Shown here: positions 3,640 to 34,147 of the stretch, piece by piece | How the letters are laid out: each line of letters opens with the position of its first letter | How positions within the stretch are numbered: position 1 is the stretch's first letter | Assembly: GCA_964016885.1 (NCBI GenBank) | Contig: OZ024755.1 | Span: forward strand, 6,262,001-6,326,000 | From: Eledone cirrhosa | Lineage: Eukaryota | Reading direction: 5' to 3' | Length of the DNA stretch: 64,000 nucleotides | Made by a program: the position numbers and the translations under genes | The notes under the pieces: model-generated | Seen by the model: the letters and a program-made list of their open reading frames with translations, nothing else | Databases searched by the model: none | What the model was told of the DNA's origin: nothing

Positions 3640-3802
3640 AACGAATAAAGCGTGGTAAGGAACCAGGTGGACCATAACGCACCAGAGTACTCGATACTTA
3701 GGGTAGTAGAATCGGTAATAGGAAAAGAGTCAGCACCCCGACGGCGTTCGGATCTAGCTGTCGAAACTGCCGGATCTTAGCCGTCGGGGTCCTGACTCTT
3801 TT

Positions 3803-3806
<4 letters not shown>
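3640..3806. mobile_element. Family B PLE-tail fold-back element in (TA)n
   Basis: Inverted arms taggaaaagagtcagcaccccgacggc / gccgtcggggtcctgactcttttccta; TA tracts on both sides; 9 related pieces in window. Confidence 0.8.
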
Positions 3807-3839
<33 letters not shown>

Positions 3840-3872
3840 AAGGAAGAAGTTGAATTTGAATTATTAACGTAT

Positions 3873-3948
3873 CACCCGGTCCGAGAATTGAACTTGCAAC
3901 CGCTCGATTGCGAATCAAATACTCTAACCACTAAGCCACGCGCCCTTC
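3873..3948 (-). mobile_element. tRNA-like head of a CORE-like SINE
   Basis: Reverse complement gcgcgtggcttagtggttagag...gttcaattctcggaccgg matches the heads at 41169, 43323 and 50350. Confidence 0.75.
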
Positions 3949-4676
3949 TCAAGTAGTGCGACAATATGTATGCACCCTTTTAGTCTACGAAAAGAGTATG
4001 AAATATACAGAAAAAATATACTCGATATTGATTTCAGAGAAAACCAGTATATTATATTCGTGATGAGATTTTCATGAAGAAGAAAATAAATCGTATTCTT
4101 TTTTATTCGTTTTTTTTTTATCTTTTATTTATCGGAATTCCAGTCACTAGAGGATAAATATATATTAAAAACAAATAAAATAAAAACATATTTGATTTTG
4201 ACAGCTATACGTCAGACGTAATAGCGTTCGAAACATTCGATTAGGCAGACAGTATCGACGAGATGTCACTTTGAATATACGCTCTATGTCCAAATGCTTC
4301 TTAGTGTGTGTAAATGTATTTTCTTATTTCTCTGCTGTGTCGTACAGAGCACTTTAACGAGGAACACTAGCAATACTAAAAGTTGCTCATACAGGAAAAC
4401 ACACACAAGGGTAGCTTGTTTTAGTCACCTGTATTGCAGCGTGGCTCACAGAACCCACAGAAACTTTGTGCTATATCGTATTCATGTATGTATGAATATA
4501 TTTATGTATGCCTCTTTGTATCACGCATTCGACGTACATACACACACATTGTGAGTCTCGGATTCAATTCTATATTAAACTTATATATATATATATATAT
4601 ATATATAGTAATAATAATAATATTTATAATTATATATGGTTTATAATTATATATGGACGGTGATTGTTTTATATTT

Positions 4677-4720
<44 letters not shown>

Positions 4721-5371
4721 TAATTAACTATTTATATCAAGGTTGGTAACAAATGATATTCAGAAACGCTACAAAGACTTATCTGTAAATAATGTGTTCA
4801 GAATGTAAATTACTTCATTGGATACCATCAACTAATTTAATTAGGTCGAATTGAAAAGAGAATTAAAATAGAATGTAGCTAAAAATGCAGTTATAATGAG
4901 GCTAGATATTTCTCTTTATCTATTACTTTCTCATCAGCTTCTCTAATTATTTCTCTCTCGTCTTCCTTATACTCATACACTCATTTTCTTTATCTCTCTA
5001 TATTTATAATTAGTGTTAATATTTATTTACACATTCTGTACACAGAATGTTACAGCTGCAACTAATGGTTTCATGAACTAACAACAACAACTGTAGAATT
5101 TCAAGCGATAAATGTGAGACATAGCGTCAGGCAAATGTGCAGGAAGTTGTAAAATCGTAAGTCCAAACTACACACACATACGTATATATATATACATATA
5201 TATATACATATATACATATATAAAATAAAGATGTGTTCCGTTAAGAGTAACGGAAGAAAACAACTAAAGTAATGTTCTCTCTACATTAGTAGTAGGTAGA
5301 GAAGATACGTAATTTTGTTTTCGTTTAGAAGTGACTCTTACATTCATAATACCTTTTCATTATGTGAAAGA

Positions 5372-5530
5372 GGATTGGGAGTATCGATAGAGGGTCGGAC
5401 GCCATGCTTTGCAGAATAGAGTTACGGCCCTTTATAATCTGATTTAAAATCCCACCGAGGTTAACTTTGCTTTTCACGCTTACGGGGTCGATACAATAGT
5501 GTACCAGTATTGCACTAGGGTAATTACTGA
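5372..5530 (+). mobile_element. Meta-like SINE (3'-truncated)
   Basis: Matches the family consensus from ggattgggagtatcg to gggtaattactg. Confidence 0.85.
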
Positions 5531-6159
5531 AAGAGGATTCAACATTCTGTATCATCAAGTGTGACCTTTCTTACACCTTTCGTTACCATATATCTAACGA
5601 AATACAAAATATCTCAATAACTTCATGAATAATCCAAGGGTTTACTAACATTAACGATAATTCCATTATTAAATTATATTTTTTACATAACTTAGCGAAG
5701 GATTCTTCTTATAATTATGTTCAAATAAATTAACATAAAAGGAACTCTTTAAAACAGATGTATTTTTGTCATAGAACCGGTTGTGGGGAAGGTTGGTCTC
5801 AGTGTTAAACAGCAACAACAAAATTATGACTGCTTATTATTTTATCTCTCTACAATAAATATTCCTACATCAATACGTCTTCAATTGTAGTTGAGAATCT
5901 AAATAATGTTTTGAAGTATTATGAAAAATTAATTAGATAGAAGATCCTACTGAACGTGGGCGGAAATACACTCACTTGTCAAACAGCGATCTCGAAAATG
6001 TTTAATATATGTATAACCCCCCCCCCCCCCCCACACACACACACACATTATATATATATATATATATTTGTTTATTTATACGTAGGTGTATATATATATA
6101 AAATATATATAGATATATATTAATAATAATATTTTATTTTAATAAATATATATATATTT

Positions 6160-6573
6160 AAAGATTAAACAAGGTTCAATGAATAAATCAAATAATGAGT
6201 TTTACAATAGATTGGAAGCACTCAACAGTATGGTTTTCCGGAGTTAATATTAATTCAAAATATTAACAAAATAGATATTCTTGTGATCAAGTATATTTTA
6301 TACATATTTCAGAGGTACTGAGTTAACTTCAACAGTACGTCCTCATCAGATAAAATAAGATGATGCATGACATACCCTAACATAGTAGATGGTTAAGATT
6401 CAGTCATGGTAGTCTATGGTGACTAACATGAATGAATCTTAACCATCTACTATGTCAGCATCATCTTATTTTATCTGATGAGGACGTACTGTTGAAGTTA
6501 ACTCAGTACCTCTGAAATATGTATAATAAAATATACTTGATCACAAGAATATCTATTTTTTTAAATATTTTGA

Positions 6574-6577
<4 letters not shown>
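6160..6577. mobile_element. Family A PLE-tail fold-back element (arms about 6252-6402 and 6433-6576) between TA tracts
   Basis: About 145-bp near-perfect inverted repeat with a hammerhead in each arm; the long arm carries agcactcaa. Confidence 0.85.
6467..6533 (+). ncRNA. Type I hammerhead ribozyme
   Basis: Stem I TATTTTAT/ATAAAATA, CTGATGA 6475, stem II GTACTG/CAGTAC, GAAA 6514, near-palindromic stem III ATATGTAT then A. Confidence 0.8.
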
Positions 6578-6608
<31 letters not shown>

Positions 6609-8248
6609 GTTGATTTCACTCAGAGAAGAAGCCGAAAAAATAAACAAATTAAAAAGACATTTCAATCTCTAGATAGTCAACAGACTAAAGGTAGAACTTC
6701 AAAATGATATATTCCTGAGGGAAAGAACTATCACTTATAAATCACTACAATATCAAATCGAATGGAAGGACGAACGAATGTATGAGAGTGGGGAGTGTAG
6801 AGACAGTGATTTATAGAAAGACAGTGAGAGAGTGATAGACAGTGACAAAGTGATAGAAAGATAGTGAGAGATAGTGATTTATAGAAAGATAGTGAGAGAG
6901 TAGGAGTGATGTGGAGGAGTATTATCATATGAAAATTCATCTTCGATTATACTGTCTCTTGAAAAGATGTCACATGTGATTTACTTTTCAAAAATAATCT
7001 CAGATATGACAAAATATTTGATAACTAAAAAAATTAAGTATTGGAGTCGATATTATAGAAAAATAATTCCCTTCAAGTTAGTAACCTGGTATTGCTGTAG
7101 TCTAATGAGTGAAACCAGTAAAAACAAAATAGAATGAATACAGAATTTAAAACAAGATTAATAGTTTGTTATTAAATTCATCTACATAATATAAAGCTAT
7201 TTCCAACCATGTACCAAGCAGCCTCATAAAGTCCTCTTTCAGAATGTATTTCGAGGGTCATTTGAAAATTATCACCCACACAACTCAGAAATATATAAAA
7301 AAGGAATACATATACATACACATATATATGTGCACAGACATGGACAAAAGATAGTACATGAATGTACATTTACATATCGTTTACAACTACCACAACCCCC
7401 AAATTGCGACTAATACTATTATTGCTCGTGACGCTACTACTACTACTGTTGTTGCTGCTGTTGCCGCCATAGAAGCGTTTGCTTCAATAATCCTAAAAAT
7501 TCTTGAAGAATCGAAAGCATTTATCGACGTTAATATTCAGGGTTATTTGCATGAACATCTAAATATACATATTTTAGTCTGTTTATATCAATATTATTAG
7601 ATAAATTATGTTTTGAAAAAACCGCTTTCGCTACCACATAATTCATTCTTTTATCCTTTATGTTTATCTTACAGAATGACTTTCATCTTTGATCATTATC
7701 TTCTAAAATATCCGTTATTCGTACTATTACCCTCTTTCATATTCCTCACGTTTTGCATTGACTTTTTTGTCAACCATTTAATTTCGTTCTAGCTTTTAAG
7801 CAGCCTCGTTTTCAAAATAAATCTACATATTTATTACACATTCTTAAGGTTTGCTACTTTATTTGTATTTTACCAATTCTTTTTTTATTTTCGTATTTAA
7901 ATTATTCTTCGAAAATGTTTTAACCTAGTTGTATATCACTCTAATGTTAGACATCTTGTACAAATCTGTCAGCTGACTCTGGCAGATAATCAATGGCAAA
8001 ATAGGAATATTGTGTGAACGTATAAAAGTATTTATCACTCGTATTCAAGATGACTGCGTCTATCATTATTATCTTCTTTCGAAGGTATTCACGTGTGATG
8101 TTGAATGTACGTTATGTATGTGTCTTCAATTATAGTTTCATTTTAATGCAAGTTTGTACGGCGTATATCTCCATATCTAACATTATTTTAGCATAACTGT
8201 ATAACGTATTTAACGTCTATTCACATACATACATGATTATATATATAT

Positions 8249-8752
8249 ATAGCCTACAAATTTAGAAGGGCCCTAAAGAAACATAATCTCAATATTAAGA
8301 TAGTAGAAAGACCTGGTACCTCCGTAAAAACACTTATTAGCAAGACATACCCGTTCCAAAGACCCTCATGTATAGATAAGAAATGTATAACCTGTAAAAT
8401 AAGCCCCCATATTAACTGTAAAACTAGAAATGTAGTATATAGCATAAGATGTACTGAGGGACAATGTAGAAACAAAAATATAGTGTACATAGGTGAGACA
8501 GCTCGTAGTATAGGGGAACGAATAAATGAACACTGGCGAGACCTCCAAGATAGTAAAGAATCATCTGTGCTCTACCAACATGCTAAGATAGAACACAGGG
8601 GTAAATTAGAGAGCATAGAAATAAAAATAGAATCCACACACAAGAAAGACGCAATGTTTAGGCAAATTACAGAGGCAGTAAGCATAAAAGAATTAAAACC
8701 AAAATTAAATAGAAAATATGAGTGGAACAGCAACATCACAACTTACAATTAA
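8249..8752 (+). pseudogene. PLE Cys-rich linker plus GIY-YIG endonuclease, no start codon, stop-free for 167 codons
   Basis: Translates ...CIDKKCITCK...CKTRNVVYSIRC...VYIGETARSIGERINEH...LYQHAKIEH...RQITEAVSIKELKPKLNRKYEW; VVY-YIG, catalytic R, E and N, and CCHH residues present. Confidence 0.92.
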
Positions 8753-9290
8753 GGACAAAATGAAAACACACACACACATATATAAACAACTTACAATTGA
8801 AAACACACACAAAATGAAAACACACACAAGACAAAATGAAAACACACACACACATAGAACAAACAACCAACCAACAATAAATAAATAAATAAACAAACAA
8901 ATATAAATAGAAAAATAGAAAAATGAACACAAACACACACAGACACCCGGATGTGGCGCATGCGCAAACTGAGCACGCAACCCACACACAAACAAAATGG
9001 CGTAGGATAGAAGAAAGGAAAGGCACAGAAACGAAGAAAGAAATCCCCAGTCACTGAAGAGGTCACAGAGTGTGTGACGAAAGAACTATGACTATATATA
9101 TATAAACAACTATCTGGTTGTGGAACCAACCAACCAACCAGAAATTTATAAATATATATTAAATTAAATTGAAGTGAAAGCAACTGGTGCGTGTGTTTCT
9201 TATTGGCAACATGACCCTCCCAAAGTATAACAATATCGGTTTCAACACACGATTTCAGATAAAGAATCTTGCTAAACAAATTCAGAAACG

Positions 9291-9293
<3 letters not shown>
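8252..9293 (+). mobile_element. 5'-truncated Penelope-like retroelement inserted in (TA)n
   Basis: C-terminal GIY-YIG frame, A/C-rich 3' UTR, hammerhead and tail; TA tracts at both ends. Confidence 0.9.
9049..9093 (+). ncRNA. Minimal type I hammerhead ribozyme of the PLE
   Basis: AGTCA-CTGAAGA-g-GTCACA gagtg TGTGAC-GAAA-GaaC-TA-TGACT. Confidence 0.88.
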
Positions 9294-9358
<65 letters not shown>

Positions 9359-9922
9359 ATTTCCGTTTACCTTTTACACATATATATATAAATATATATA
9401 TATACACAAAATTATTTATCCGAGTGTAGACACTCGCACAAAGATGTCTTCGTACGGACAAATGACAAACACACACATATGTACAGGCTCTATATACAAA
9501 GGCTTTCTTTTCCGATTCAGCTAGAGGCGTTAGATCAGCGCCTTTTAAAACAAGAACAATTGATTTTCTTATATAACAACGCCTGAATCAACAGCTTTCC
9601 AAGAGTTGGCGACATGAAAAGAACTGTTTTTTTTTCCAAAGAATTCTTGTGTTCTTTCCTGCCACTGTCCACTCTCCATCTTTCTAGTTCTTCTTTAATT
9701 TCTCTTTCTATTTTCTGAAACGTTAATACTCTATTCCTACTATACCAAGCATAAAACTAATAATAATATTTCTTCTTCGTACTGTGTCGTTTGCTTTGTT
9801 ACTTTGCCTTTATATACACACTCCAACACTATTCATATATATAAGTATACATTTTTGGGGACACCCTATATGTATAGTGTATTTGAATATATATCTATAT
9901 TATAAAAAATACTATACATCCA

Positions 9923-9956
<34 letters not shown>

Positions 9957-10829
9957 TATGGGTGCCTGTGTGAGTGTATTTGTGTATGTACGCGTGTATT
10001 CGATATACATTGCATCGCATTGAAAATACGCAGAATGCTACAACAATAAATAGGATAAAAATAAGAAAGAAAGAAACAAGAAGAATTGGAGAAGGAATAA
10101 ATAAATATGAAAAATAACGTATCAAATATTATTTGATAAAAAAAAATATTTGCCAACACTTACCAAATCGTAAGGAAACCGTGAGACGGTTTAATAATTA
10201 GTCACCTGTAGGAAAGCCACCCACTGATTAGCTGACTTGATAATAAATATAGTCTGAAAAACAAAGAAGATATAAAATGTATAAAAACTAAAAATGTTAT
10301 AATGATTAGAAACGACCAATATAACAACAATGGTGGAAAAAAAGGTATCAATTAGTTAAGGTAAAAGAAATGTAATATTTTACTCATAATTTGAGGGTAA
10401 ACAATCTTTCGCAAAAGCAATTACTTTTCCTTCTCTTTCAACACACATACGCACACATATATCCTCACCCCACATTGCTGTGAATGTTACAGAATAGGAT
10501 TTTACTGTTGCTACCACTATCGCCACCACCATACTTTTACTGTTTCTTTCTAACATACACTTTTCCCCTCCATCACCTTTCTATAAAGACGTGAGATCAT
10601 CATCTCCAACAAAACACTCTCTCCACAGAATCATACAGACAAACACGATGATATCAACCACTTTCCAGCATGAGAGATGATTTACACCACAGAAACTCAG
10701 TAATAAAGAAATGGGCTTCTATATTTCAGATAGTTGAAGTATATAAGCTGATATGAATCTAAATTTGTTGAACAACAATCACCACATTCTAAACATTATC
10801 GAACTATTAATGGTTTATATATAGCTTCT

Positions 10830-11107
10830 GACTTAGGCTCAAGGCCAACAATGTTTGGGGAGGGGAATGTCAATTAAATCGATCCCAGTGCGTTACTGGT
10901 ACTTTATTTTATCGACTCCGTAAGAATGAAAGACAAAGCGAACCTTGGGCGAATTTGAACTGAGAAGGTAACTATTGGTTTATATAATTGTTTCTACTTT
11001 TGGCACAAGACCAGCAATTAACCCAGTGTATTACTGGTACTTTATTTTATCTAACCCCGTAAGGATGAAGGGCAAAATTAACCTTACGGGGTAGATAAAA
11101 TAAAGTA
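10830..11107 (-). mobile_element. Two partial Meta-like SINEs, the second ending in a short fold-back
   Basis: Two ctggtactttattttatc cores; 11038-11064 is inverted at 11082-11107. Confidence 0.85.
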
Positions 11108-11516
11108 ACAGTTTATATAATGTTTGGTTTATATAATGGAAAGCAAAAGAAGAAAAATGTTCCCGTTCTGTGAAAATATTTGGTAAAATATTAAAAGCTC
11201 GGAGAACCGTTAAACGGGGACATACCCAACACATAACCCCTCGTACACACTATATATAAGTGTGTTTGTGTGTGTGGATATATGTATTATAGGCGTCCCA
11301 GCCTTTTAGTACGTTCTCTAAAATTTCGCTTGCCCATCGAATCACCAGCGTAATTTCACAGAGAGAAAGTATTGAGTTCTATTTCGCACGCTTGCAAATC
11401 TCTCTCTCTATATATATATGTGTTTGTGTTTTTGTGTGTGTGTGGGTGTGTGTATGTGTTCAATATACTCTACTTTCGTGTTAAGCACTTTTTCCATGTC
11501 TTTGCAAATCCAAACC

Positions 11517-11570
<54 letters not shown>

Positions 11571-11947
11571 TATAGATATATATATATATACACATATAGG
11601 TATATACGCACATACATACATATATACATACACACAAACATATCATGCTTGAGTACCAAGTAAAATAAGTTACATATTCCATCTCGCACCAAATCCAACT
11701 TTGGCATATTAACAATTTCTAAAGTTGATGAAATACGTGTGTGGTATATCAAGCAATTTTAGGATGTATGTTGTAAATAGTGAATCTGCTTAAGAACTGG
11801 GAATAGGAAAACAAAAACGCATTTTTGTTTATTTCAGCGAAACCTGTAGAGGCCAACTGTTAGAACTAAAACCATATGTTGAGTTTTTTTAAGATGTGGG
11901 AAAGAAGTTAAATTATATAGACACTATACACACAGGTGTGTATGTGT

Positions 11948-12048
11948 TTATATATATATATAGTATATATATATATATAGTATATATATATATATAGTAT
12001 ATATATATATATAGTATATATATATATATAGTATATATATATATATAG

Positions 12049-12079
<31 letters not shown>

Positions 12080-12211
12080 TATATATATATAGTATATATA
12101 TATATATAGTATATATATATATATAGTATATATATATATATAGTATATATATATATATAGTATATATATATATATAGTATATATATATATATAGTATATA
12201 TATATATATAG

Positions 12212-12242
<31 letters not shown>

Positions 12243-12300
12243 TATATATATATATAGTATATATATATATATATATATATAGTATATATATATATATATA

Positions 12301-12336
<36 letters not shown>

Positions 12337-12465
12337 TATATATATATATATATATAGTATATAGTATATATATATATATAGTATATAGTATATATATATA
12401 TATAGTATATATATATATATAGTATATATATATATATATATATATAGTATATATATATATATATA

Positions 12466-12499
<34 letters not shown>

Positions 12500-12523
12500 T
12501 ATATATATATATATATATATATA

Positions 12524-12561
<38 letters not shown>

Positions 12562-12683
12562 TATATATATAGTATATATATATAGTATATATATATATAG
12601 TATATATATATAGTATATATATATATATAGTATATATATATATATAGTATATATATATAGTATATATATATATATATATATAG

Positions 12684-12743
<60 letters not shown>

Positions 12744-12924
12744 TATATATATATATATATATATAGTATATATATATATATATATATAGTAGTATATATA
12801 TATATATATATATATAGTAGTATATATATATATATATATAGTAGTATATATATATATATATATATATAGTAGTATATATATATATATATATATATAGTAT
12901 ATATATATATATATATATATAGTA

Positions 12925-12996
<72 letters not shown>

Positions 12997-12997
12997 G

Positions 12998-13028
<31 letters not shown>

Positions 13029-13029
13029 G

Positions 13030-13060
<31 letters not shown>

Positions 13061-13905
13061 GTATATATATATATATATATATATATAGTAGTATATATAT
13101 ATATATATATATATAGTAGTATATATATATATATATATATAGTAGTATATATATATATATATATATAGTAGTATATATATATATATATAGTAGTATATAT
13201 ATATATATATATAGTAGTATATATATATATATATATAGTAGTATATATATATATATATATAGTAGTATATATATATATATATATAGTAGTATATATATAT
13301 ATATATAGTAGTATATATATATATATATAGTAGTATATATATATATATATATATATAGTAGTATATATATATATATATATATAGTAGTATATATATATAT
13401 ATAGTAGTATATATATATATATATAGTAGTATATATATATATATATATATAGTAGTATATATATATATATATAGTAGTATATATATATATATATAGTAGT
13501 ATATATATATATATAGTAGTATATATATATATATATAGTAGTATATATATATATATATATATAGTAGTATATATATATATATAGTATATATATAGTAGTA
13601 TATATATATATATATAGTAGTATATATATATATATATAGTATATATATAGTATATATATAGTAGTATATATATATATATATAGTATATATATAGTATATA
13701 TATAGTAGTATATATATATATAGTATATATATAGTATATATATAGTAGTATATATATATATATATATAGTATATATATAGTATATATATAGTAGTATATA
13801 TATATATATATATATATATAGTATATATATAGTATATATATAGTAGTATATATATATATATATAGTATATATATATATAGTATATATATATATAGTATAT
13901 TATAT
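11948..13905. repeat. About 1.95-kb (TA)n array punctuated by G and GTAG
   Basis: Direct reading; explains the 665- and 670-aa YI-repeat ORFs. Confidence 0.98.
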
Positions 13906-13906
13906 A

Positions 13907-14066
13907 ACAAATGAATTGTGGTAAGGAACCAGATGAACCATAACGCACCATAGTACTCAATACTTAGGGTAGTAGAGTGGGAAATAGGAAAAAGTATTTC
14001 TGGACTAGTCCAGAAATAGCCGTCGAAACGGCTTGAGCTCTGCCGTCTGGGTCATACTTTTTCCTA
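13907..14066. mobile_element. Family B fold-back element with 14-bp TSD
   Basis: Same tail as 3640; taggaaaaagtat/atactttttccta arms; TAGTATATTATATA at 13893-13906 and 14065-14078. Confidence 0.82.
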
Positions 14067-14714
14067 GTATATTATATATATATATATAGTATAATATATT
14101 ATATATATATATATATATATATTACATAAACGTATTACATTCTATCAGATTTTGCTTGTGTTACTGTTTATTATATATTAGTTTTTGCTGATAATTTTGT
14201 TTCACTTGAATCAATATGTATTAATTGATGTTCGATGGGACCATATGATTATATTTTTTAAAAGTTAAGTAAACGGAGACGCTGCAAGGGGTTGAGGAGA
14301 AACATCTGTTCTAATTAGGGATCTAATTCGTATATTTACATCAGAGTGGACTCTGCTAAAGGTACATAAGCTCCACCTCCCATGTAGATCACAGCAGAAT
14401 TAGAAATTAGTATACAACGAAGCGGAACAGATCCTGCTCTACTACTTTTGCCAATCCGTCGTCCTGAACTGAGAGACAGGAAATGTACGTCTAGTGTCAA
14501 TTATAAACCATAGGAGTAGTTTTCAAAATCCAGATATTCGATGTCCGTGGTTTATCTGAAGGGTAGGCGGGTAGAATTCCAAGGTGCTCTGTAGATATTC
14601 AGGTTAGAATAGGATCTATGCTTGGCTGATACGCTTAGCTCCACAACAATTAATCAAATGAGAGTAGACTCCGGCTCTTTTGCTACTAACATTATATTAG
14701 TCTAGCCTCGTCTT

Positions 14715-14830
14715 AATTCAAATCCCGCCGAGGTTAACTTTGCCTTTCGTTCCTATGGGATCGATAAAATAAAGTACCAGTAATGTACTAGGATAATTGC
14801 TGGCCTTGTGCCCCAAAAAAGAAACAATTA
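14715..14830 (+). mobile_element. 5'-truncated Meta-like SINE with TSD
   Basis: Consensus match; attatattagtcta on both flanks. Confidence 0.88.
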
Positions 14831-17150: not shown

Positions 17151-17166
17151 AGCTATAATATTGACA

Positions 17167-17985: not shown

Positions 17986-18014
<29 letters not shown>

Positions 18015-18017
<3 letters not shown>

Positions 18018-18143: not shown

Positions 18144-18172
<29 letters not shown>

Positions 18173-18176
<4 letters not shown>

Positions 18177-20500: not shown

Positions 20501-20515
20501 GAAGATTGGGCAACA

Positions 20516-22484: not shown

Positions 22485-22517
<33 letters not shown>

Positions 22518-22566
22518 TAATAAATGAACAGAGAGGCAGTATAAATGATATCAGTATTAGTTTCAC

Positions 22567-22618
<52 letters not shown>

Positions 22619-22628
22619 TTTTTATTTT

Positions 22629-22678
22629 TCTCATGACAGGCTGAAGAAATTGGGGCCCAGAACCCAACGAAACTTGAG

Positions 22679-22680
<2 letters not shown>
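22629..22680 (+). ncRNA. Hammerhead ribozyme truncated at its cleavage site
   Basis: CTGAAGA 22641, stem II TTGGG/CCCAA, GAAA 22669, CTTGAG, TA; no 3' stem I strand. Confidence 0.65.
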
Positions 22681-22710
<30 letters not shown>

Positions 22711-22817
22711 TGTATGTATGTATGTATGTATGTATGTATGTATGTATGTATGTATGTATGTATGTATGTATGTATGTATGTATGTATGTATGTATGCATG
22801 CATGTATGTATGCATGT
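22681..22817. repeat. (TATG)n microsatellite
   Basis: Direct reading. Confidence 0.98.
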
Positions 22818-22818
22818 A

Positions 22819-23256
22819 GAGATGACCCCTTAGAGATGACTCCTTAGCCTTTGTCAAGGCAGAATTCTAGGAGAAGGAAAACTCTGATATAACACCTGCA
22901 ACTCTGATGGTATCCAATGATGTTGACATGTTCTTTTTGGTAAATATCATCTTGGTTAAGAGAGTGGGACTGGCTTTGTGCAGTGTCGTTGCTCACTATA
23001 AAAGCTTCACGGCACAGGCATTGCTTTATATCTGGAGATCACTCTGCACTTGTCACATGGTACCATGGGCCCAACACTATGTGTCAATAATTGTCACAGG
23101 TGTAGTGTTTGTACCAGAGTTTTCAAGTCGCATGCTGAACTAAAAATCACTCGTTCAGCGCATCGGTAGGGGTTCTCCTACATGGATATAAAGTAGTGGC
23201 CGTACTCGAAAACGAGTTGGCAGCCACCATGTATGTATGTATGTATGTATGTATGT
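22819..23256 (+). mobile_element. Non-autonomous bipartite RTE-clade element with (ATGT)n tail
   Basis: RTE 5'-UTR-like ctaggagaaggaaaactctga at 22867; degenerate terminal zinc finger CSVCTRVFKSHAELK...HR* at 23101-23169; short 3' UTR then tandem tail. Confidence 0.65.
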
Positions 23257-23974
23257 GTGTGTGCTTAAGTGTGTGTATATAATGTGACATCAGGTTAATA
23301 GAGTAATTATCTATCACTTAAAGGTGCACATGTATACATAAGCCCCCTCCCCCCTACACACACACATACAAACACACACAAACACGTTTATGTTATTAAG
23401 AAGTATACGCACCTCACCTAATACAAAACATGTGTTGCACAGTTATTGAAAACGTGAAGGTACTACTAGAATGTGATCTAAATATTTACTCACACACAAA
23501 TACACACGTACACACTACACGAACACACACATACTCACACACAAATACACACGTACACACCTACACGGACACACACACCTACACGAACACACATATACAT
23601 ACACATACACGTGTACAGTAGAGTTAAGGTGAGTAAAGTGTATACGAGTGATTCAAATCTGTAGAAAGTAATTTTGTTTTCTACGAAGTTCCACGTGAAA
23701 TTGCTTTGGCTTGCAAGACTTAAAACAAGTGACTAAATATAGATTCATGCCAGACAGACATTCGTAAGCCAGAATGAAATGTGGTTTTTCAGACAGTGAA
23801 GTTATATTTCAGGAATATATATGTATATATGTATTTCCAGTCACAAGTGCAAATGCGCACATATACCTATATATGCATATATAGTGCAATTCATGCAGAT
23901 ATTTGGCATTTTCGACATTGAAAACATTTTAGAGTGTTTGCTTGTCTGACTGACTATCTGTGTCTCTCTGTGCG

Positions 23975-24115
23975 TGTGTATATATATATATATATATAAA
24001 AATATATATATATATACACACACATACACACATATATATATATATATACACACATATAAACACATATACACACACACACACATATATATACACATATATA
24101 CACATACATATACAC

Positions 24116-24150
<35 letters not shown>

Positions 24151-24362
24151 TATATACACACATATATATACATACACATATACACACATATATATACATA
24201 CACATATACACACATATATATACATACACACATATATACAGACACATATACACACATATACACATATATACACAGACATATATATATATACATACCCACA
24301 CATACATACACATACATATACACACATACACATATATACACACAGACATATATATATACATA
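23975..24362. repeat. Compound TA/CA microsatellite
   Basis: Direct reading. Confidence 0.95.
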
Positions 24363-24509
24363 TAATGTCATAACCTGTTGATTATTTAATTGTCAAAGTT
24401 CTTCAGCCTTTCTTCTCTGTATCCACTCTTCATTTTGAATAGGGTTTTATGCTTTTCATAAATAGATCTGTGATCTGAAGTATGAGGGTTGATTTAAGTT
24501 GAAGCACCC

Positions 24510-26018
24510 TCAACACCAGTTCCAGCCACGACCAAAACCAACAACTATAGTAAGACGACTACGACTACCATCACCACCATCAACACCAACAATATCACGA
24601 CGACCAATAGCAACACCACCACCATCATGAATACCAATACCACCACCTACACCACCAATAATACTACGACAACCACCAACAACACCACTAACATCAACAC
24701 CACTGCCACCAACACCACCAACAACACCACTGCCACCAGCACCAACAACACCACCACTGCCACCAGCACCAACACCACCAACACTAACATCAACACCACT
24801 GCCACCACCACCACCATCAACACCACTGCCACCAACAACACCACTGCTACCAACACCACCACTAGCATCAACACCACTGCCACCAACAACATCACTAACA
24901 TCAACACCACTAACTCCATCACCACCAACAACATCACTAACATCAACACCACTGCCACCAACACCACCACCAACACCACTAACATCAACACCACTGCCAC
25001 CAACACCACCAACAACACCACCACTGCCACCAACACCACCAACACCACCAACAACATCACTAACATCAACACCATTGCCACCAACACCACCACCAACACC
25101 ACTAACATCAACACCACTGCTACCACCAACACCACTAACATCAACACCACCACCACCAACACCACCACCACTAACACCACCACCACTAACACCACTAACA
25201 TCAACACCACTAACATCAACACCACTAACATCAACACCACTAACATCAACACCACTGCCACCAACACCACCACCAACACCACCAACACCACTAACATCAA
25301 CACCACTGCCACCAACACCACTGCCACCAACACCAACATCAACACCACTGCCACCAACACCACCACCAACACCACTGCCACCAACACCACCACTAACATC
25401 AACACCACTGCCACCAACAACACCACTGCCACCAACACCACCACTAACATCAACACCACTGCCACCAACAACACCACTGCCACCAACACCACCACTAACA
25501 TCAACACCACTGCCACCAACAACACCACTGCCACCAACAACACCACTAACATCAACACCACTGCCACCAACAACACCACTGCCGCCAACAACACCACTGC
25601 CACCAACACCACCACTAACATCAACACCACTGCCACCAACAACACCACTGCCACCAACACCACCACTAACATCAACACCACTGCCACCAACAACACCACT
25701 GCCACCAACACCACCACTAACATCAACACCACTGCCACCAACAACACCACTGCCACCAACAACACCACTAACATCAACACCACTGCCACCAACAACACCA
25801 CTGCCACCAACAACACCACTGCCATCAACACCACCACCACTAACATCAACACCTCTGCCACCAACACCACCACTAACATCAACACCACTGCCACCAACAC
25901 CACCACCCAACATCAACACCACTGCCACCAACACCACCACCACCACCACTAGCAAAAGCAACTAACATCAACAAGACCAACAACAACATACTAACAACAA
26001 CACCAACAACAACATACT
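24510..26018. repeat. ACC/AAC triplet-based array with 15/18-bp modules and a 51-bp higher-order unit
   Basis: Modules accactgccaccaacaac, accactgccaccaacacc and accactaacatcaac; homogeneous at about 25380-25900. Confidence 0.95.
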
Positions 26019-26236
26019 AAAGAGATTGATGTATTTGTCATGTTAATCATTTTATTTTGCTTCACTGAATTATTTTCATTGTCTGCGTTTTTTTACAGGA
26101 GCATTCATTTTTTTTATTCTCTCTCTCTCTCTCTCTCTCTCTCCAGACTTCCGGTTGTCATAATGGCGTTGGTAGGACAACATGGAGGTCAGTTGCCACT
26201 GGGAGAAAAAACATTCAATGTATGCGGTATGAGTGA

Positions 26237-26279
<43 letters not shown>

Positions 26280-26340
26280 TATATGTATATATGTTCATAT
26301 TTTTAAAAATATGTATGTATGTATGTATGTATGTGTGTGT

Positions 26341-26530
26341 AATTTTTAAATGTGTGGTGGTCTGAGTTTGAATATGTGATGTGCGTGTGTATGTGAGAGT
26401 ATATTTGTGGTGTGTATGTATGTATGTATGTGTAATTTTTAAATGTGGTGGTGGTGGTCTGAGTTTGAATATGTGATGTACGTGTGTATGTGAGAGAATA
26501 TATTTGTGGTGTGTATGTATGTATGTATGT
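26341..26530. repeat. About 93-bp tandem duplication
   Basis: aatttttaaatgtg...ggtctgagtttgaatatgtgatgt...tatatttgtggtgtgtatg occurs twice. Confidence 0.85.
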
Positions 26531-27122
26531 AAATGTGTATATTTGTGTCAATATATGAGATGTATGTTGAGTATGAGACCTTGGGCGAGAGAAAGCAAGA
26601 AGGAGTAAGAGAGAAAGCGTGAGAAAATGATGAGAAAGATGGTTTGATAGCATGAGGGAAGGAGGGAGCGAAAAGGGGCTTGAAGGCGAGGGAAAAATGG
26701 AAAGGGGTTAGAGTGACAGACAAAAATATGTATTAAGAGGCATTAACGGTGACTATGGCGTCGGCTGTAAATGACAGAGAGAGAGAAAAAAATATTTATA
26801 TATATAGAGAGAGAGGATGGATGGTGTGTGTGTGGGGGGGGGGGGATAAGATAAAGTAAATTAAGTAGAAGATAAACATAGAATTGAAACAATGCATCCA
26901 TTATGGCATGCATAATATATGAGGAATATGAGAGAGAATACGCAATGACATTGAAGAGAGAACGAAACAGAATATATAGAGAGAGGAGGGAGATAATAAA
27001 AGCAGAGAGAAGTATGAGGAAGGCAGCGACAAGTATATTTATACATACATACATATATATATATAGTGAGGATAAAGAGAAACAACTATATATATATATA
27101 TATATACACATACATACATACA

Positions 27123-27157
<35 letters not shown>

Positions 27158-28431
27158 GTATGTATGCATGCATGTATGTAGTGAAGAGAGAGAGAGAGAG
27201 AGATAGTAAGACGTTGGAAGATAGAAAGAGAGAGAGTGGAAATGTTGAGCGGTAAAGTGAAAAGTAACGAAAATGTTGTAGTAAAAATGCCACATCTTTC
27301 GAGTAAAGAGTATTGTGTTAGAATTAGCTTTATAACATAAAAATGGCTTCCCTTTCAAAACATCAGCCATTAAGTTTATTTGGTTTCTCGTGGCCTTTAC
27401 GGCTTCTGGTCAAACTCACATCTCATTCGCTTTCTCTCTCTCTCTATCTATGTTTTTCTCTGCATCTTTTCTCTCTTATATACTTGCTTAATATCACTCT
27501 GTATCTCTATTTCCCTATCTATATTTCCTTTTCCTTCGCCATTTCTTTCCTACTTCATTCCTTTTTCTTTCTTTCATTGCTTCTATTTCTTTATTTCTTA
27601 TATTTAACCTTATCTTTTTCATCATACATATTCATTCGTGTTGCATATTCAATCGATTTCTACACCATTGTTTACTAATTTTTCCTACTCTTTCAATACG
27701 TACTTTACATTTTCATTTCACTGTTTTAATATTAATTTTCACATCTGTCTCTGTACGAGCTGTAGGACAAATGAGAGTTTTTCTGTAGAGGCAGTTACTC
27801 TGTTACAAAAAAACTGTTGAAATTACTGCTCTTGCTTAAAGTTTGTTGTTGGCTTCCTTAGATTTGATATTTAAAGTATTTGCTATTCTCGACTTAAATT
27901 TCGCATCGGAAATTGTTGGGCATTCTGGTTAGGTTGTTGGGATCCTGAACGTGAGTTGAGTTTGATTCCTGGATCTGATGACACATTGGCTAAGCTGCGT
28001 TCTTCATTGTTAAGATAAAATGAAATGACTGCATGTCCGTGTTCTTTAGTTCACTGGTTGCATTTTGATAATAGAAACCCGTTCTGTTGAAGGGCTTTAA
28101 GCTTGAGCGAACGTTTCGCATAATGCATTAGATAGACAGACAGGCAACCAGATAAACAGATAGAAATGATAAGCATCTGCATTGTGATGTGCTACGTATA
28201 AAAGATTTGAAGAAAAAGATGCTAAACATGGTGATGAGGACTACATGAACGTTGGACGTTATACATGTATAGGTTAGCGGCCTAAAGGAACCCTAATAAC
28301 GAAAAATGAGTATTGGACCAATTGTAACAAAAAGAAAAAAACGAGAGTTCATATAGAAACAGTAGATCAAATGAAATACAACAGTTATAGTATGTATGTA
28401 TGTATGCATGTGTATATATATATAAAAGATA

Positions 28432-28513
28432 CGGTGTGGTAAAAACCAGCTAGACTGTAACCCACCAGAGTACTCGATACTGAGAGAGAGAGAGAGACAG
28501 AGAGAGAGTGTGT

Positions 28514-28546
<33 letters not shown>

Positions 28547-28650
28547 CGTGTGGTCATTCCAAAGGAACGATCCAGACATATTATCGTCTGTGATCTAGAA
28601 ACCTTTAGTAATGGAATAGTTATATTGTGTGTTCACTTTCTAAGTAGGTA
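28432..28650. mobile_element. Family B tail fragment (minus), GA and GTGTGC repeats, then 3' half of the 3517-type hammerhead element (plus)
   Basis: gtggtaaaaaccag...cagagtactcgatact; gaaacctttagtaatggaatagttatattgtgt. Confidence 0.65.
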
Positions 28651-28651
28651 A

Positions 28652-28691
<40 letters not shown>

Positions 28692-28862
28692 CTCTTTAGA
28701 ATGTGGCAAAAATTCACACCTTCATCACACATACACATGTCTATATACATAACTGCTTATGTATGTAGGTATGTATGTATGTATTTATGTATATAAGTGT
28801 GTGTATGTATGTGTGGTTATATGTATACGTGTATGTAAACGTGTATTTGAAATTTTGCGCGA

Positions 28863-28900
<38 letters not shown>

Positions 28901-29249
28901 GCAGATACGTCTTAACAAGGTTAGGTAATCTAGGTGATACTAGAACGGGAGAAAAATCAATAAACTTCAGTTCTATATAGTAAGGCCTGGGTTCTTTTTA
29001 TAAGTATTTATATTCTATATATCTCTTGACACTCAACCTATACTGTTTCTACATATAGCTCCATTAATTAAAACTTTCTGGAAAGCTTTAAGACGTAGCT
29101 GTTTTTCGAAAATTTGAATTATTCAAGTGAATTTGTAGAAAAGGTTTAACCACATTACAAAAGGTTACTTCTAAAACTTGAACCTGAAACAAGGATTCAG
29201 TTTTATGACACTTTCTTATTTTTCAAGCACGAAATATATGTAGAGAGAG

Positions 29250-29601
29250 AGAGAGAGACAGTCGATCGAGTTTTCGTCAAGTCGAACCCAGGAAATCTAT
29301 GTTTCCATTGGTCTTTCCAATTGCTAATACCTTCTATCGGTCGCAACTCTGTGTAGAAGAGGCAACGTGAAATAAAGTGTCTTGCCCAAGACACTTTATT
29401 TCACGTTGCCTCTTCTATCGGTCGCAACTCTGTGTAGAAGAGGCAACGTGAAATAAAGTGTCTTGGGCAAGACACTTTATTTCACGTTGCCTCTTCTACA
29501 CAGAGTTGCGACCGATAGAAGGCATTAGCAATTGGAAAGACCAATGGAAACATAGATTTCCTGGGTCCGACTTGACGAAAACTCGATCGACTGTCTCTCT
29601 C
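29250..29601. mobile_element. Headless CORE-like SINE 3' half arranged as a multi-switch palindrome
   Basis: About 135-bp outer inverted arms; centres tcttgcccaaga and tcttgggcaaga; same tail family as 43081. Confidence 0.9.
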
Positions 29602-29618
29602 TTTTTTTTTTTTTTTCT

Positions 29619-29668
29619 TAGTCCAGAATTAGCCGTAGAAACGGCTTGAGCTTAGCCGTCGGGGTCCT
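29619..29668 (+). mobile_element. Family B hammerhead 3' half fragment
   Basis: tagtccagaattagccgtagaaacggcttgagcttagccgtcggggtcc matches 14006-14053. Confidence 0.7.
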
Positions 29669-29697
29669 ACGCATTCATATATATATATATATATATA

Positions 29698-29942
29698 GTG
29701 AAAAATGGAACGGGAACAAAACAGAGAGGCAGTACGAACAAAGGTGTATTAGTTTCACGCTCTTGAGAGGGGGGCGGGGGAACGACGTTTCGGGCATAAG
29801 CCCTTCTTCAGGCGAAAAGTGTGTGGGAAGAGAGTTCCAAGGGTGTGTAGGGGGTGGGAGGAAACGGTGGAAGGGGTACAAATGAAAATAAATATAAAAA
29901 AATTATAAAAATAAACATGAAGATAAACAAGTGGTGGAAGGG

Positions 29943-29945
<3 letters not shown>
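29698..29945 (-). mobile_element. PLE 3' UTR/tail fragment between TA tracts
   Basis: Contains a hammerhead core; downstream gcgtgaaactaatacacc resembles 46125-46145 and 22530-22567. Confidence 0.7.
29781..29814 (-). ncRNA. Minimal hammerhead core (weak stem I)
   Basis: CTGAAGA-a-GGGC ttat GCCC-GAAA-CG-TC. Confidence 0.65.
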
Positions 29946-29978
<33 letters not shown>

Positions 29979-31234
29979 ATCTGGGGAGGGTCATGTTAGA
30001 ATATTGCCAGAAATAATAAAACACCCACTGTTTGGTTTGGTTTGGTTTCGCTTCTGTATCTTTTATATCTCCATAGTTAATTTATCTGGCAATCAATGTT
30101 TATCATTGACTGACCAACGGTTAAACATACAGATATATATATGTGTATATGTGTATATGTGTATATATGTGTGTGTGTGCGCGCGTGTGAGTGTGTTTGT
30201 CAGCCTGTGTGTGTGTGTACTTGTTTGGTAACTTAATGGAGAAGTATATTAAACTACCATTATATAGAGAAACAAGTGGTAATATTTAAATTTATTCAAA
30301 TTTACATCTTGCTGACAATGCGGGATTACAACTCGTTAATCGATGAGTTAACTCTGTGAATCACGTTTAGAACGCTCTCTTCTGTCCTTGACAGGCAATA
30401 TATTTAAGTATCTACAGTTTACCTAGCTCTATATAGGAAGCAATTCATATCTTTAAACACACGTATACACATGGTTTAATGTGTTTGTATGTATAAGGGT
30501 CAACTTCTCTCCCTCTCTCTGCCGCTCTATCTCTCTCCCTCTCTCTTATATATGCATATTCACATATACATGCATGTACATGAATCTCTCTATGGCAGAA
30601 AACCTGAAGTAGCCACGATGTGAAATCTGTAGTTTGTATTACTTTATGTGAATACATATATATATATATTATCTACATACACACACATATTTACACACAC
30701 GCATAAATATATATCCACATACACATATCCATACACAGACACACACAACTATATGTATATATACATATATATATATAGATATGCATACATACATACATAA
30801 GAATAGCACCCATTCTAGCAGACATTCTACGTCAAAACCGTTTATATCAAACTGTTTATCAGTTTGATATTAAGCTTACGTAACAAGCTCACGTCCTTAC
30901 ATTAATTCGTTATTATGACATAAACTAAACAGTGAATATGATTACCTGACATCTAGACAACTACAAACACATGTAAATGAAAATTGTAAAGTAACGATAC
31001 ACTAACTTGTATGTTAATCGAAAGGAAAAAGTCGATTTCGTGTATTTTATAATCATCAGTAAGTGAACCTTTCAACAAGAATGATTATCGTTTTATGAAA
31101 AAAGAAGAAAACAAAACGTCAGAAGAGATTGGTCATACAAGTTGTAATAGATTAAGCTCTTAACTTTTAAATATTATTACGGAGAATCTAAGAAGGCTAG
31201 AATTCATGTAGGTATATATACATATATATATATA

Positions 31235-31637
31235 GAGATTTAGGTTTCAAGGTTCACCACTGGATAGAGCTGGTCATTCCGTATGGTCAATATTGATGTA
31301 ATAATATGGAGAGTACTCAACGTAAAGCAGCTCAACCGTCTTCGTTTGTGTAGTTGATGATGCGAGTACGGAGTTAAACATTATAATAAAATAACAGGAG
31401 GCTGGACTTGTATAAATCCTTGAAAAGTTTATTATACTATGATCATTTCTATGACCGGGTTCCGTATGAATCCGGTGATATCATCAGGTATTCGAAATAT
31501 AATAAATGATTATTTATATTTCGAATACCTGGTGATATTACCGGATTCATACGGAACCCGGTCATTGAAATGATCATAGTATAATAAACTTTTCAAGGAT
31601 TTACACAAGTCCAGCCTCCTGTTATTTTATTATAATT
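31235..31637. mobile_element. Family D PLE-tail fold-back element (arms 31381-31501 and 31515-31635) between TA tracts
   Basis: About 120-bp inverted repeat with about 4 mismatches; hammerhead in each arm; gagtactcaa in the long arm. Confidence 0.88.
31434..31491 (-). ncRNA. Type I hammerhead ribozyme with palindromic stem III
   Basis: ATAC-CTGATGA-tatcACCGG..CCGGTcata-GAAA-TGATCA-TA-GTAT; mirror copy 31525-31582 has core change CTGGTGA. Confidence 0.8.
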
Positions 31638-31864
31638 ATATATATATATATATAATTACAAGAAACGAAGCGAACTGTGTGGTTACTGGAAACAAAGTTT
31701 AAGATGGTAATATGGACGAAACAAGAGAAGGACCCCTTCGTCAACTGTTGACTGCAGATCATAGATGTTTCGGCGCTTAAAACAAGACATCAAAAGCGAT
31801 CAGCAGCGCGCCCAAGTCCTTTTATCGATCAATATCTCTCTCTCTCTCTATATATATATATATA

Positions 31865-32040
31865 AAAAGATTCCGGATTCAGACGGCAGAGCTCCGAACG
31901 TTCGGATCTAGCTGTCGAAACGGCCGGAGCTCAGTCGTTGGGGTCCTGAATCTTTTCTTATTACCCACTCTGCTACCCCAAGTATCGAATACTCTGTTGG
32001 ATTATAGTCTACCTGTTTTTTTTTACCACACCCTATCTGA
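31865..32040 (+). mobile_element. Family B element with short 5' inverted arm
   Basis: gttcggatctagctgtcgaaacggccggagctcag...accacacc; TA flanks. Confidence 0.8.
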
Positions 32041-32047
32041 TATATTT

Positions 32048-32082
<35 letters not shown>

Positions 32083-32959
32083 GTTTGAGCTGTGTAAAAG
32101 AATGAACTCAATACAAGTGTATATTTTATTCTAGCTACGAACCTACCCGAATCCCTTGCAGACAAAGAGGCTCGTGCTTAAAGCTGCAATAAAAAAAAAA
32201 ACTACATTTGAAGAGTGTGCTTATAGAGATTATTCTTTGTAACCACACTGTGATTAGACTGATGCTCTACCAACAAGCATATATTACCTCCGATACCAGT
32301 TGCATGCACTATTTCTCGCTGCTGAATAGTTCCCTGGTGATACACAGTACCCACACAGATCACGTATCAGATGTAACAACATAGCCTTAGTAGTTGTCAA
32401 CGATATGACAACTTACTACCTGTATTCTTTAAAACTAACACCTCATACATTAGTTTCACACCGTTCGACACCTATTGCATTAATAAATATTTCTAAACAG
32501 AACAAAATTACTTTACGTTACATCTTGTTGTCGTTGAAATTATCTGTTAACCACATCATGACGTTAAGCCTGTTAATTCTGTTTATACGTACGCGTCCTT
32601 TGTGGATTCAGAAAGATATGTAGCCTAGTGGTTAGAGTGTATGGTTTACGATCATATACTTGTGATTTCGATTCGCTGTGGCATTTTAAGGCTTTAAGCC
32701 CAGCAGTTTATTTAACTATATTTCAAAGGTCAATTCCCCACGCTTAATCTCCCTAGGTTAATGGTGTTGATATCAGTGGAATGCTAAGACACTTGTAGGT
32801 TAATTTCAATAGCTGCTCTTTCCTTTGTTTGAACATTTGGAACGCTAACTCTTTTATACGTTTCTGAATATACACATACGTACTTCGTGTATACATAAAG
32901 ACATACCAACCATAATAATATGGCATATATATATATATATATATACAGAGAGAGAGAGA

Positions 32960-33180
32960 GAGGTAGAACACTGGACGGTAATATTAGTAGTGGCAGAGCA
33001 CTCAATCCATGGGACGAGTTTGGTAGAAGTATTAACACAACAGTTAGTTCACCATACCGAGAACAATTGTTTCACCTTATAAGGTCCTGACTCTTTTCCC
33101 ATTACCCACTCTACTACCCTAAGTATCGAGTACTCTGGTGCGTTATGGTGTATCTGATTCCTTACCACACTTCCTTCGTT
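32960..33180. mobile_element. Chimera of a family E tail (minus) and a family B tail (plus)
   Basis: Minus ACCT tata AGGT-GAAA-CAATTG-TT hammerhead 3' half (33062-33085) overlaps ggtcctgactcttttccc by GGT. Confidence 0.72.
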
Positions 33181-33913
33181 TATATATATATATATATATA
33201 TCTGTTCTTGTCTGATGACACTGTCATAAACTGGCCCTCCAACAACACTGCATGTATACTGTTATATTGTTATATTGTTTTTCAGAATAGTTCTCCGCAT
33301 TTCCTACAGTATTTTTGACGCAATTATTGAAACCTTTTAAACAATGAAAATACATTTATCTTGTCAATCAATTTGTCACAATCAATTTAACCTATTGGCA
33401 AGTGAATAATATATTTTTGAATTCCGTGTTTGTAAATCTAGTTTTACAAAAAGGTAAGGGCATTAACTCCTGGTGGAGTCGTAAAAGCGCCAACCTAACA
33501 CACGACGTATCTTTGACATTATATGAACTCCCTCTCCTGAGAATATTACTACATTCATCAATTCATTTTATATGTATATAGTAGGTAGCTGTTATATCTT
33601 TATTAATATTTTCTATAAGTATTTTGAAATTACCATCTATATCAGAATTGTTCTGATGGTTGGTATTTTATATATACTACAACTAAAACAAAGGTTATGA
33701 TTGTGATGGGAATTGCGTGTTATATAGTTTTATATCACGTCGCATAAGCATACATATCTGGTCAAAATTGTGCTCCACAAGCAAAAGATACCAATGTACT
33801 GGGAACATATTTTTGTGGCTCTTCAAACAGGAATACTGGGACACGCATATTTCGGAGCTGTAATTGGTGTGTCTACATTTTGAAAAGAGTGTGTATATAT
33901 ATATATATATATT

Positions 33914-34147
33914 ATAGGAAAAGAGTAAGGACCCCGACGGCTGAGCTCCGTCCGTTTCGACATCTAGATCCGAAACGGCTGGATCTCAGCTGTCGGGGTC
34001 CTACACTTTTCCTATTACACATTCTACTACCCTAAGTATCGAGTACTCTGGTGCGTTATGGTCCACCTTCTTTGATCTGCGGTCGTTTCTAATCTAGCTG
34101 TCGAAACAGCCGGAGGTCAGCCGTCGGGGTCCTTACTCTTTTGCTAT
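33914..34147. mobile_element. Family B fold-back plus partial tandem copy
   Basis: Inverted arms 33914-33960 and 33971-34015, tail to 34068, then a second gaaacagccggaggtcagccgtcggggtcc copy. Confidence 0.82.

Follow-up and report, generated by a model that had tools for sequence, protein, structure and literature searches.

Paired short copies of a Penelope-like element in Eledone cirrhosa point to two-ended priming on an RNA that may begin within its own hammerhead motif

The 64,000-nucleotide window analysed here (positions 6262001-6326000 of contig C15, GenBank OZ024755.1, in the 3.0-Gb genome of Eledone cirrhosa) carries short inserts, some of them in inverted pairs, that hold the 3' half of a type I hammerhead ribozyme. 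We call them family B, with subfamilies B1 and B2. Family B is almost certainly the pseudo-long terminal repeat (pLTR) plus tail, that is, one end, of a Penelope-like element (PLE), probably of the endonuclease-bearing (EN+) kind. Its hairpins, in our preferred reading, are two complementary DNAs (cDNAs) primed from the cut ends of a (TA)n target, each run off the 5' end of the element RNA at about -18, and joined head to head; we give this reading a probability of roughly 60%. That two separately primed cDNAs are involved, one per target end and fixed start site, is very likely. Positions are counted from the G of the GAAA box as 0, and the predicted ribozyme cut falls after +22.

The ends of the copies carry most of the argument. 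Breakpoints were collected from 162 arms in 1.464 Mb of the genome, made up of two hit-dense stretches of contig C1 (400 kb), 264 kb around the window and 800 kb not chosen by density. The 3' ends fall at two sites against (TA)n, +42 to +45 in 55 of the 162 arms and +120 to +123 in 69. At the 5' side, 11 arms keep the core, one ends at -46, none ends between -45 and -23, 50 end at -22 to -16, and 100 end further downstream; this 5' wall is sharp at -22, and -18 is the commonest end. In the 800 kb sampled without regard to density the pattern is the same, with 7, 1 and 26 of 83 arms in the first, second and fourth of these classes, as against 11, 1 and 50 of 162 overall. Hence 93% of arms lack the core and 7% are long copies, and the arms that pass the wall reach from -86 to -1280. 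Four independent runs have the same two 3' ends and a loose end at -22 (places 2783, 2703, 2847); run depth falls about 20-fold from the bin downstream of -29 to its upstream neighbour, in contigs of unrecorded kind that cannot show RNA starts. A strongly non-uniform distribution, clustered in the 3' strand of stem II, had been anticipated in a preliminary description of the window made from the letters alone, and it holds genome-wide.

That description explained the hairpins differently. A single cDNA was supposed to stall in stem II and prime itself on the microhomology GCYGTC, so that the ribozyme fold would make the hairpin and remove its own core. Breakpoints do concentrate in stem II, self-priming has been proposed before for PLE palindromes (PMC3846280), and the two arms of an insertion are more alike than arms of different insertions (3.2 versus 8.0 mismatches per 41 nt; 25 pairs scored). 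The likeness of the arms, however, is also expected from two cDNAs of one source. Moreover, in 60 of 62 head-to-head pairs one arm ends near +42 and its partner near +122, so that a tail of about 80 nt stands on one end, joined to an inverted 5'-short copy; these are different fixed 3' ends. The tail-less arm is the 5'-longer one in 39 of the 60 pairs (by more than 10 nt in 24), the tail arm is longer in 17, the two are equal in 4, and some tail arms begin only at +35 to +94. The insertion at 3746 illustrates the point, with a tail arm of +17 to +123 and a partner of -17 to +44, each with sequence missing from the other. Where each arm holds sequence that the other lacks, neither can be a fold-back copy of its partner. 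GCYGTC does indeed occur twice, once ahead of GAAA and once where cleavage would fall, yet it is used at 1 of the 62 junctions, which otherwise divide among filler (40), overlap of any kind (14) and blunt joins (8). Self-priming is thus extremely improbable. Since the junctions of 60 of the 62 pairs are distinct, the hairpins were formed anew each time. Two cDNAs explain both the asymmetric arms and the distinct junctions, and they agree with in vitro work on another PLE, in which reverse transcription began at two sites and both strands were extended (PMC11167929).

The family B arms of the window are as follows.

3639-3745, minus strand: tail-bearing arm, B1, +17 to +123.
3746-3807, plus strand: tail-less arm, B1, -17 to +44 (stem II 3' strand, GAAA, stem III, GUC, stem I 3' strand), followed by (TA)n.
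13904-13996, minus strand: tail-bearing arm, B2, about +30 to +122; adjoins the TA/TAG array at 11949-13906.
14006-14069, plus strand: tail-less arm, B2, -19 to +44; the junction, 13997-14005, is a 9-nt inverted copy of the arm's own start.
28427-28481, minus strand: tail-only fragment, +64 to +119; absent from the preliminary description.
29618-29670, plus strand: solo arm, B2, -20 to +32, after a T run.
31864-31899, minus strand: short decayed inverted arm of the 31900 insertion, under the BLAST cut-off and recognised in the sequence.
31900-32042, plus strand: tail-bearing arm, B1, -17 to +123.
33083-33180, plus strand: solo arm, +25 to +122, starting 2 nt past the predicted ribozyme cut; absent from the preliminary description.
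33914-33975, minus strand: tail-less arm, B1, -17 to +44.
33972-34068, plus strand: tail-bearing arm, B1, 0 to +97; 4 nt in common with the opposite arm.
34086-34147, plus strand: second tail-less arm, B1, about -11 to +44, either lying within the tail of the preceding insertion or joined to it.
59993-60091, minus strand: solo arm, +24 to +122, its start 1 nt beyond the predicted cut; outside the range covered by the preliminary description.

These are 12 arms detected by BLAST and one decayed arm. The six copies first described, at 3746, 31900, 33961 and 34085 (B1) and at 14005 and 29619 (B2), were all recovered in place, and each starts near GAAA, 0-20 nt upstream of it. Four of them have an inverted partner, as had been reported (3746, 14005, 33961 and 31900, the last with the short decayed one); the copy at 34085 follows the tail of the 33961 insertion, and that at 29619 is solo. 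The statement that every copy breaks inside stem II went too far: the overlooked members start downstream of it (33083 at +25, 59993-60091 at +24, 28427-28481 at +64), and so do the tail-bearing arms at 3745 (+17) and 13996 (+30). Chance does not account for these copies: the exact stem III-cleavage motif occurs twice in the window against 0.00 times in 100 shuffles, and four exact 26-nt patterns from one subfamily find 26,181 matches in the genome, with 0 for the reversed controls.

What, then, is the wall? It is probably the 5' end of an RNA. Whether that end is also the element's own transcription start, at the conserved motif YAGTY, is an even call. YAGTY lies at -19 to -15 in both subfamilies, despite their different predicted folds there (unpaired in B1, partly paired in B2), and we take it to resemble the initiator consensus. 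An extra G at a cDNA end can be templated by the cap; the base before A-18 is G in 5,050 copies against A in 827, and about 16 of 30 G cases inspected by eye are not accounted for by the partner arm. The centres of 29 perfect hairpins (CG 10, GC 3, mixed 16) lend weak support to a cap-templated G. There is a precedent in Drosophila virilis Penelope, in which RNA starts within the pLTR from an internal promoter (PMC2377424).

The behaviour of long copies bears on the same question. Among the pairs, three are long-long and none is long-short (P 8.5e-6 under arm independence), and 46 of 100 core-bearing matches stand head to head with another core-bearing match. As long arms pair with long arms only (3 of 3), passing of the wall appears to be fixed per insertion. 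Independent stalling of each cDNA would usually give long arms short partners; long-long pairs are what is expected if the template ends at the wall. This must be set against the possibility that there are two cDNAs, with the wall a point of stalling or release at the folded long stem II, or at a bound protein, acting on the whole RNA molecule. Such a block would fit a wall that B1 and B2 alike have in the 3' side of stem II, compensatory changes that maintain stem II (4 of 11 pairs), a second predicted helix in B1 with its base at -22, and the mixed outcome of the cap-G tests. It would have to stop an enzyme that had made its way through stem I, stem III and the proximal stem II helix beforehand, in a region that is unpaired in the predicted fold of B1 and partly paired in that of B2, and the all-or-none passage per insertion demands an additional molecule-wide switch. 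We consider it unlikely, though it deserves to be kept in mind.

Several points weigh against an RNA start at the wall, or against the data from which it is argued. The putative transcription start is deduced from the ends of genomic DNA. C precedes A-18 in 4,275 copies, partly as a templated variant. Where arms are joined to a TA run, the preceding base is G in 30 and C in 50 (n = 80), and in the B1 arms so joined it is G in 1, C in 11 and A in 1 (n = 13). The cap-G signature is therefore inconsistent, with one test for, one weak and two against. Microhomology between arm and target, through TA or AGT, may have made the peak at -18/-19 narrower. Because the wall lies in stem II, it may instead be a fold- or protein-dependent block of the whole RNA molecule. 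The 5' ends were set against six single-copy references, and those of decayed copies are uncertain by several bases; the sample of head-to-head pairs is small (n = 62). Finally, YAG is also a splice-acceptor motif.

That last point raises the question of spliced templates, with the wall as a 3' splice site (YAG at -19 to -17) and the short copies derived from spliced or otherwise processed RNA. YAG is kept in all subfamilies, as TAG or CAG, and an intron in the 5' untranslated region occurs in other PLEs. No common upstream exon, however, was seen in 30 inspected junctions or 38 unpaired arms, and the ends, with their mode at -18, extend to -22, upstream of the acceptor; splicing is a very improbable explanation. 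Little better is the notion that the short copies were mainly templated by a short, core-less unit, resembling a short interspersed nuclear element (SINE), whose transcription starts near -18 under a promoter within the unit itself. The 93% of arms without a core would suit it, as would the internal promoter of the D. virilis pLTR, which would make short copies transcribable (PMC2377424). The preliminary description had offered a related alternative, the core-less hairpin as the propagating unit, and this fails on the same two observations: 60 of 62 junctions are unique, so hairpins are not copied as hairpins, and both subfamilies of short copies are also found linked to coding sequence. Besides, short copies stop at +122, without the remaining start of the open reading frame (ORF) that the enzyme needed in the in vitro work (PMC11167929), and an RNA start near -18 is required here as well. 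Altogether we regard the short unit as improbable.

Under the reading that we prefer, with two cDNAs run off the end of an RNA, the (TA)n target would be cut and each end would prime its own cDNA on the element RNA, at fixed sites at +42 and +122. Both cDNAs would run off the RNA 5' end at about -18, inside stem II, and would then be joined head to head to give the hairpin. Most short copies would be complete rather than truncated, representing the RNA's first 60 and 140 nt, and would result from enzyme starts at the site close to the RNA 5' end; the 7% of long copies would reflect starts in the downstream repeat of a tandem or read-through RNA. The whole ribozyme would be present only in that downstream repeat, and the ribozyme fold would not determine the breakpoint. 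The fullest form of this proposal is that the RNA begins inside its own hammerhead, with a half-ribozyme at its 5' end and the cap kept, and that about nine in ten genomic copies are complete two-sided products; this we hold tentatively, at slightly less than even odds.

The parent element could be traced through the long copies. Of 30 loci retrieved by the 3' part, 3 continue upstream through the ribozyme. Thirty further long copies, found with a TTGATAA-type query, read stem I, then TTGAYAA (in 28 of the 30), then a long stem II, and three of them run upstream into an endonuclease-like coding region. Through a protein search, the endonuclease-like piece revealed 3,542-bp units arranged in tandem, every one of them with an open frame of 784-786 codons and the same hammerhead, here with the core TTGAGAA; five units lie head to tail at a spacing of 3,542-3,543 bp, the tandem organisation that forms pLTRs. 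The endonuclease pieces of B1 and B2 are 75% identical, and the B1 long copies sit downstream of theirs. On contig C1, 91.47-91.49 Mb (loci L091 and L092) holds a head-to-tail series of at least five units, nearly identical and with open frames; from these, and from many more 784-codon frames on the same contig, B2 has amplified recently. At three loci (L034, L050 and L051) long B1 copies are joined, inverted, to reverse transcriptase (RT) or endonuclease pieces of other Penelope-like families.

The predicted protein was modelled with a pLDDT of 92.5, and its best structural matches are telomerase RTs (TERT chains; E 4.8e-8, and in a second search Z 17.5 with a root-mean-square deviation of 2.8 over 258 aligned residues). 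The motifs RWR, DKT, CxCX5C, CxxC and CxH are all present, the set that defines the Hydra clade of PLEs (an RWK motif, DKT where DKG would otherwise stand, a CxCX5C linker, and CxxC and CxH flanking the conserved E and N), and the insertion flanks share that clade's preference for (TA)n. A VIY/YIG-like motif was noted by eye in the C-terminal region. Pfam gave no match for the endonuclease piece, the whole ORF or seven homologues (the homologue table lists two unnamed Pfam accessions), and a PDB sequence search with the protein gave none. No GIY-YIG enzyme stands among the fold matches listed, but the endonuclease domain was not folded separately, and this is evidence neither way. A non-LTR retrozyme was also considered and ruled out: the tandem unit is 3.5 kb and coding, and the short copies lack the core.

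The ribozyme motif itself has, with high confidence, the fold of a type I hammerhead of U3-A8 type. Core counts were made on the first 100 of 5,170 places matched by a degenerate pattern that admits both cores: TTGANAA (U3-A8) occurs 77 times, CTGANAA (a C3-A8 mismatch) 20, TTGANGA (U3-G8) 3 and CTGANGA (C3-G8) 0. The rest of the core is kept (U4 G5 A6, A9, G10.1-C11.1, G12 A13 A14, A15.1-U16.1, NUH), and N7 varies freely among T, G, A and C across subfamilies. The minimum-energy fold is a three-way junction, open at helix I, with a helix III of 5 bp and 9-nt loop and about 55 nt of stem II and loop. In 30 chosen copies 91% of cells are paired, against 29-50% in slid controls, in a structure drawn from these same sequences, and 5 of 21 pairs are altered on both sides. 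U3-A8 is a published covariant of C3-G8, known from Schistosoma PLEs (PMC4209133). Rfam found no hammerhead in the window or in eight loci.

From this vantage the preliminary description was right that the inserts are retrotransposed and carry the 3' half of a type I hammerhead, and only partly right about the core. No copy keeps CTGANGA, as it said; the remark misleads, since the core of the long copies is TTGANAA, and for that reason the absence of CTGANGA is uninformative on loss of the ribozyme. The CTGANGA master copy that it foresaw does not appear among the 100 core hits, and masters exist with the U3-A8 core. Long copies without CTGANGA, which it would have taken as a sign that the motif is no hammerhead, are literally what is found, yet this is a hammerhead motif, of the U3-A8 kind.

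Some further observations concern hammerhead motifs. Four of the 162 arms, two of them those at 33083 and 60091 in the window, start at +22 to +26, within 4 nt of the predicted cut, and are possible copies of self-cleaved RNA, a weak hint. A B2 subfamily with the core CTGAGAA, the C3-A8 mismatch, accounts for 20 of the first 100 core hits and is seen on both arms of single insertions (e.g., C1 2495719 and 2497197; loci L068, L075, L098 and L250). A ribozyme that is likely impaired has thus become widespread, in keeping with the finding that mutation of the ribozyme does not prevent insertion in vitro (PMC11167929). Loop III (+8 to +15) contains in every copy the palindrome GAGCTC (e.g., window 29646-29655), as in hammerheads capable of dimerising, although helix III is long enough to form by itself. 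Locus L094 (518, 838, 2089, 2170) has two unrelated hammerhead-like motifs with U3-A8 cores, and this variant may be common among elements of the genome. The window also has canonical CTGANGA hammerheads with a short stem II, from unrelated families, at 46058-46110 (plus), 29780-29811 (minus), 9054 (plus) and 63500 (minus).

The surroundings of the copies can be described briefly. Window 11949-13906 is a 2-kb TA array with TAG interruptions that adjoins the arm at 13904; arms that begin at -18 could find microhomology in the TAGT and CAGT steps of arrays like this one. Two 81-bp copies that are also long palindromes lie at 29331-29498, 120 bp upstream of the copy at 29619. A tRNA-like match at 41101-41158 on the minus strand (30.2 bits) is probably the head of a tRNA-derived SINE. 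The output of repeat finders on the window was dominated by microsatellites.

In practical terms, family B puts both models to the test on the scale of a genome; two separately primed cDNAs withstand it and self-priming does not, and the preferred reading predicts an exact RNA start. For annotation, tens of thousands of short TA-flanked hairpins in this genome are PLE ends, and searches fixed on CTGANGA overlook the ribozyme of these elements. If the reading is true, two-ended priming would be what gives Penelope elements their characteristic inverted ends, and Penelope start sites could be mapped from DNA alone, by where the ends of short copies accumulate.

In L1 twin priming, likewise, two target ends prime on the element RNA and an inversion results. 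There the second priming is internal and variable and the arms do not overlap, whereas in family B neither site varies and overlap of the arms is usual. The self-priming model for PLE palindromes (Arkhipova et al. 2013, PMC3846280) was built on the same features, head-to-head inverted pLTRs, junction palindromes and a tail on one arm; the asymmetry of the arms here favours two separately primed cDNAs instead. Among ribozymes, the closest likeness is with the Cercyon PLEs of Schistosoma (Cervera and De la Pena 2014, PMC4209133), which have a type I pLTR hammerhead with U3-A8 for C3-G8 that escapes standard descriptors, and mostly single or opposite-strand motifs from short copies. Theirs, however, are minimal motifs without helix III.

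In its protein and its insertions the element resembles the Hydra clade of C-terminal-EN PLEs (Craig et al. 2021, PMC8557442): a single ORF with RT and a C-terminal EN region (putative in family B), the motifs RW(K/R), DKT, CxCX5C, CxxC and CxH, (TA)n targets, an inverted partner that is short at its 5' side, and a tail at one of the two ends. By eye, the family B protein is homologous to but distinct from Hydra-1_Obim. The Hydra elements are 'generally <3 kb' and have a canonical hammerhead, and because the 3,542-bp unit and the U3-A8 core depart from that, we file family B as Hydra-like; their tail, moreover, is 30-40 nt against about 80 nt here, and the accessible part of the paper describes no sharp 5' wall. 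Four of its traits are individually in print already: the tail, the inverted short partner, the (TA)n target and the U3-A8 core. For the sharp stem II wall, a wall set by a start site, two-ended priming, passage per insertion and the evidence against self-priming we found no earlier statement in the PLE literature, as covered by the available parts of papers, few of them from subscription journals; the origin of inverted and tandem PLE insertions is named as an open question (PMC8557442).

A further comparison is with in vitro work on the Poseidon PLE of Anolis (Frangieh et al. 2024, PMC11167929). There too, two internal RT start sites define the tail, both strands of an AT-rich target are cut and extended, insertion has no need of the ribozyme, and the tail enters the ORF frame. 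Poseidon belongs to another clade, and in the portion of the work available inverted junctions and the 5' boundary of genomic copies are not addressed; family B ties those in vitro start sites to genomic hairpins.

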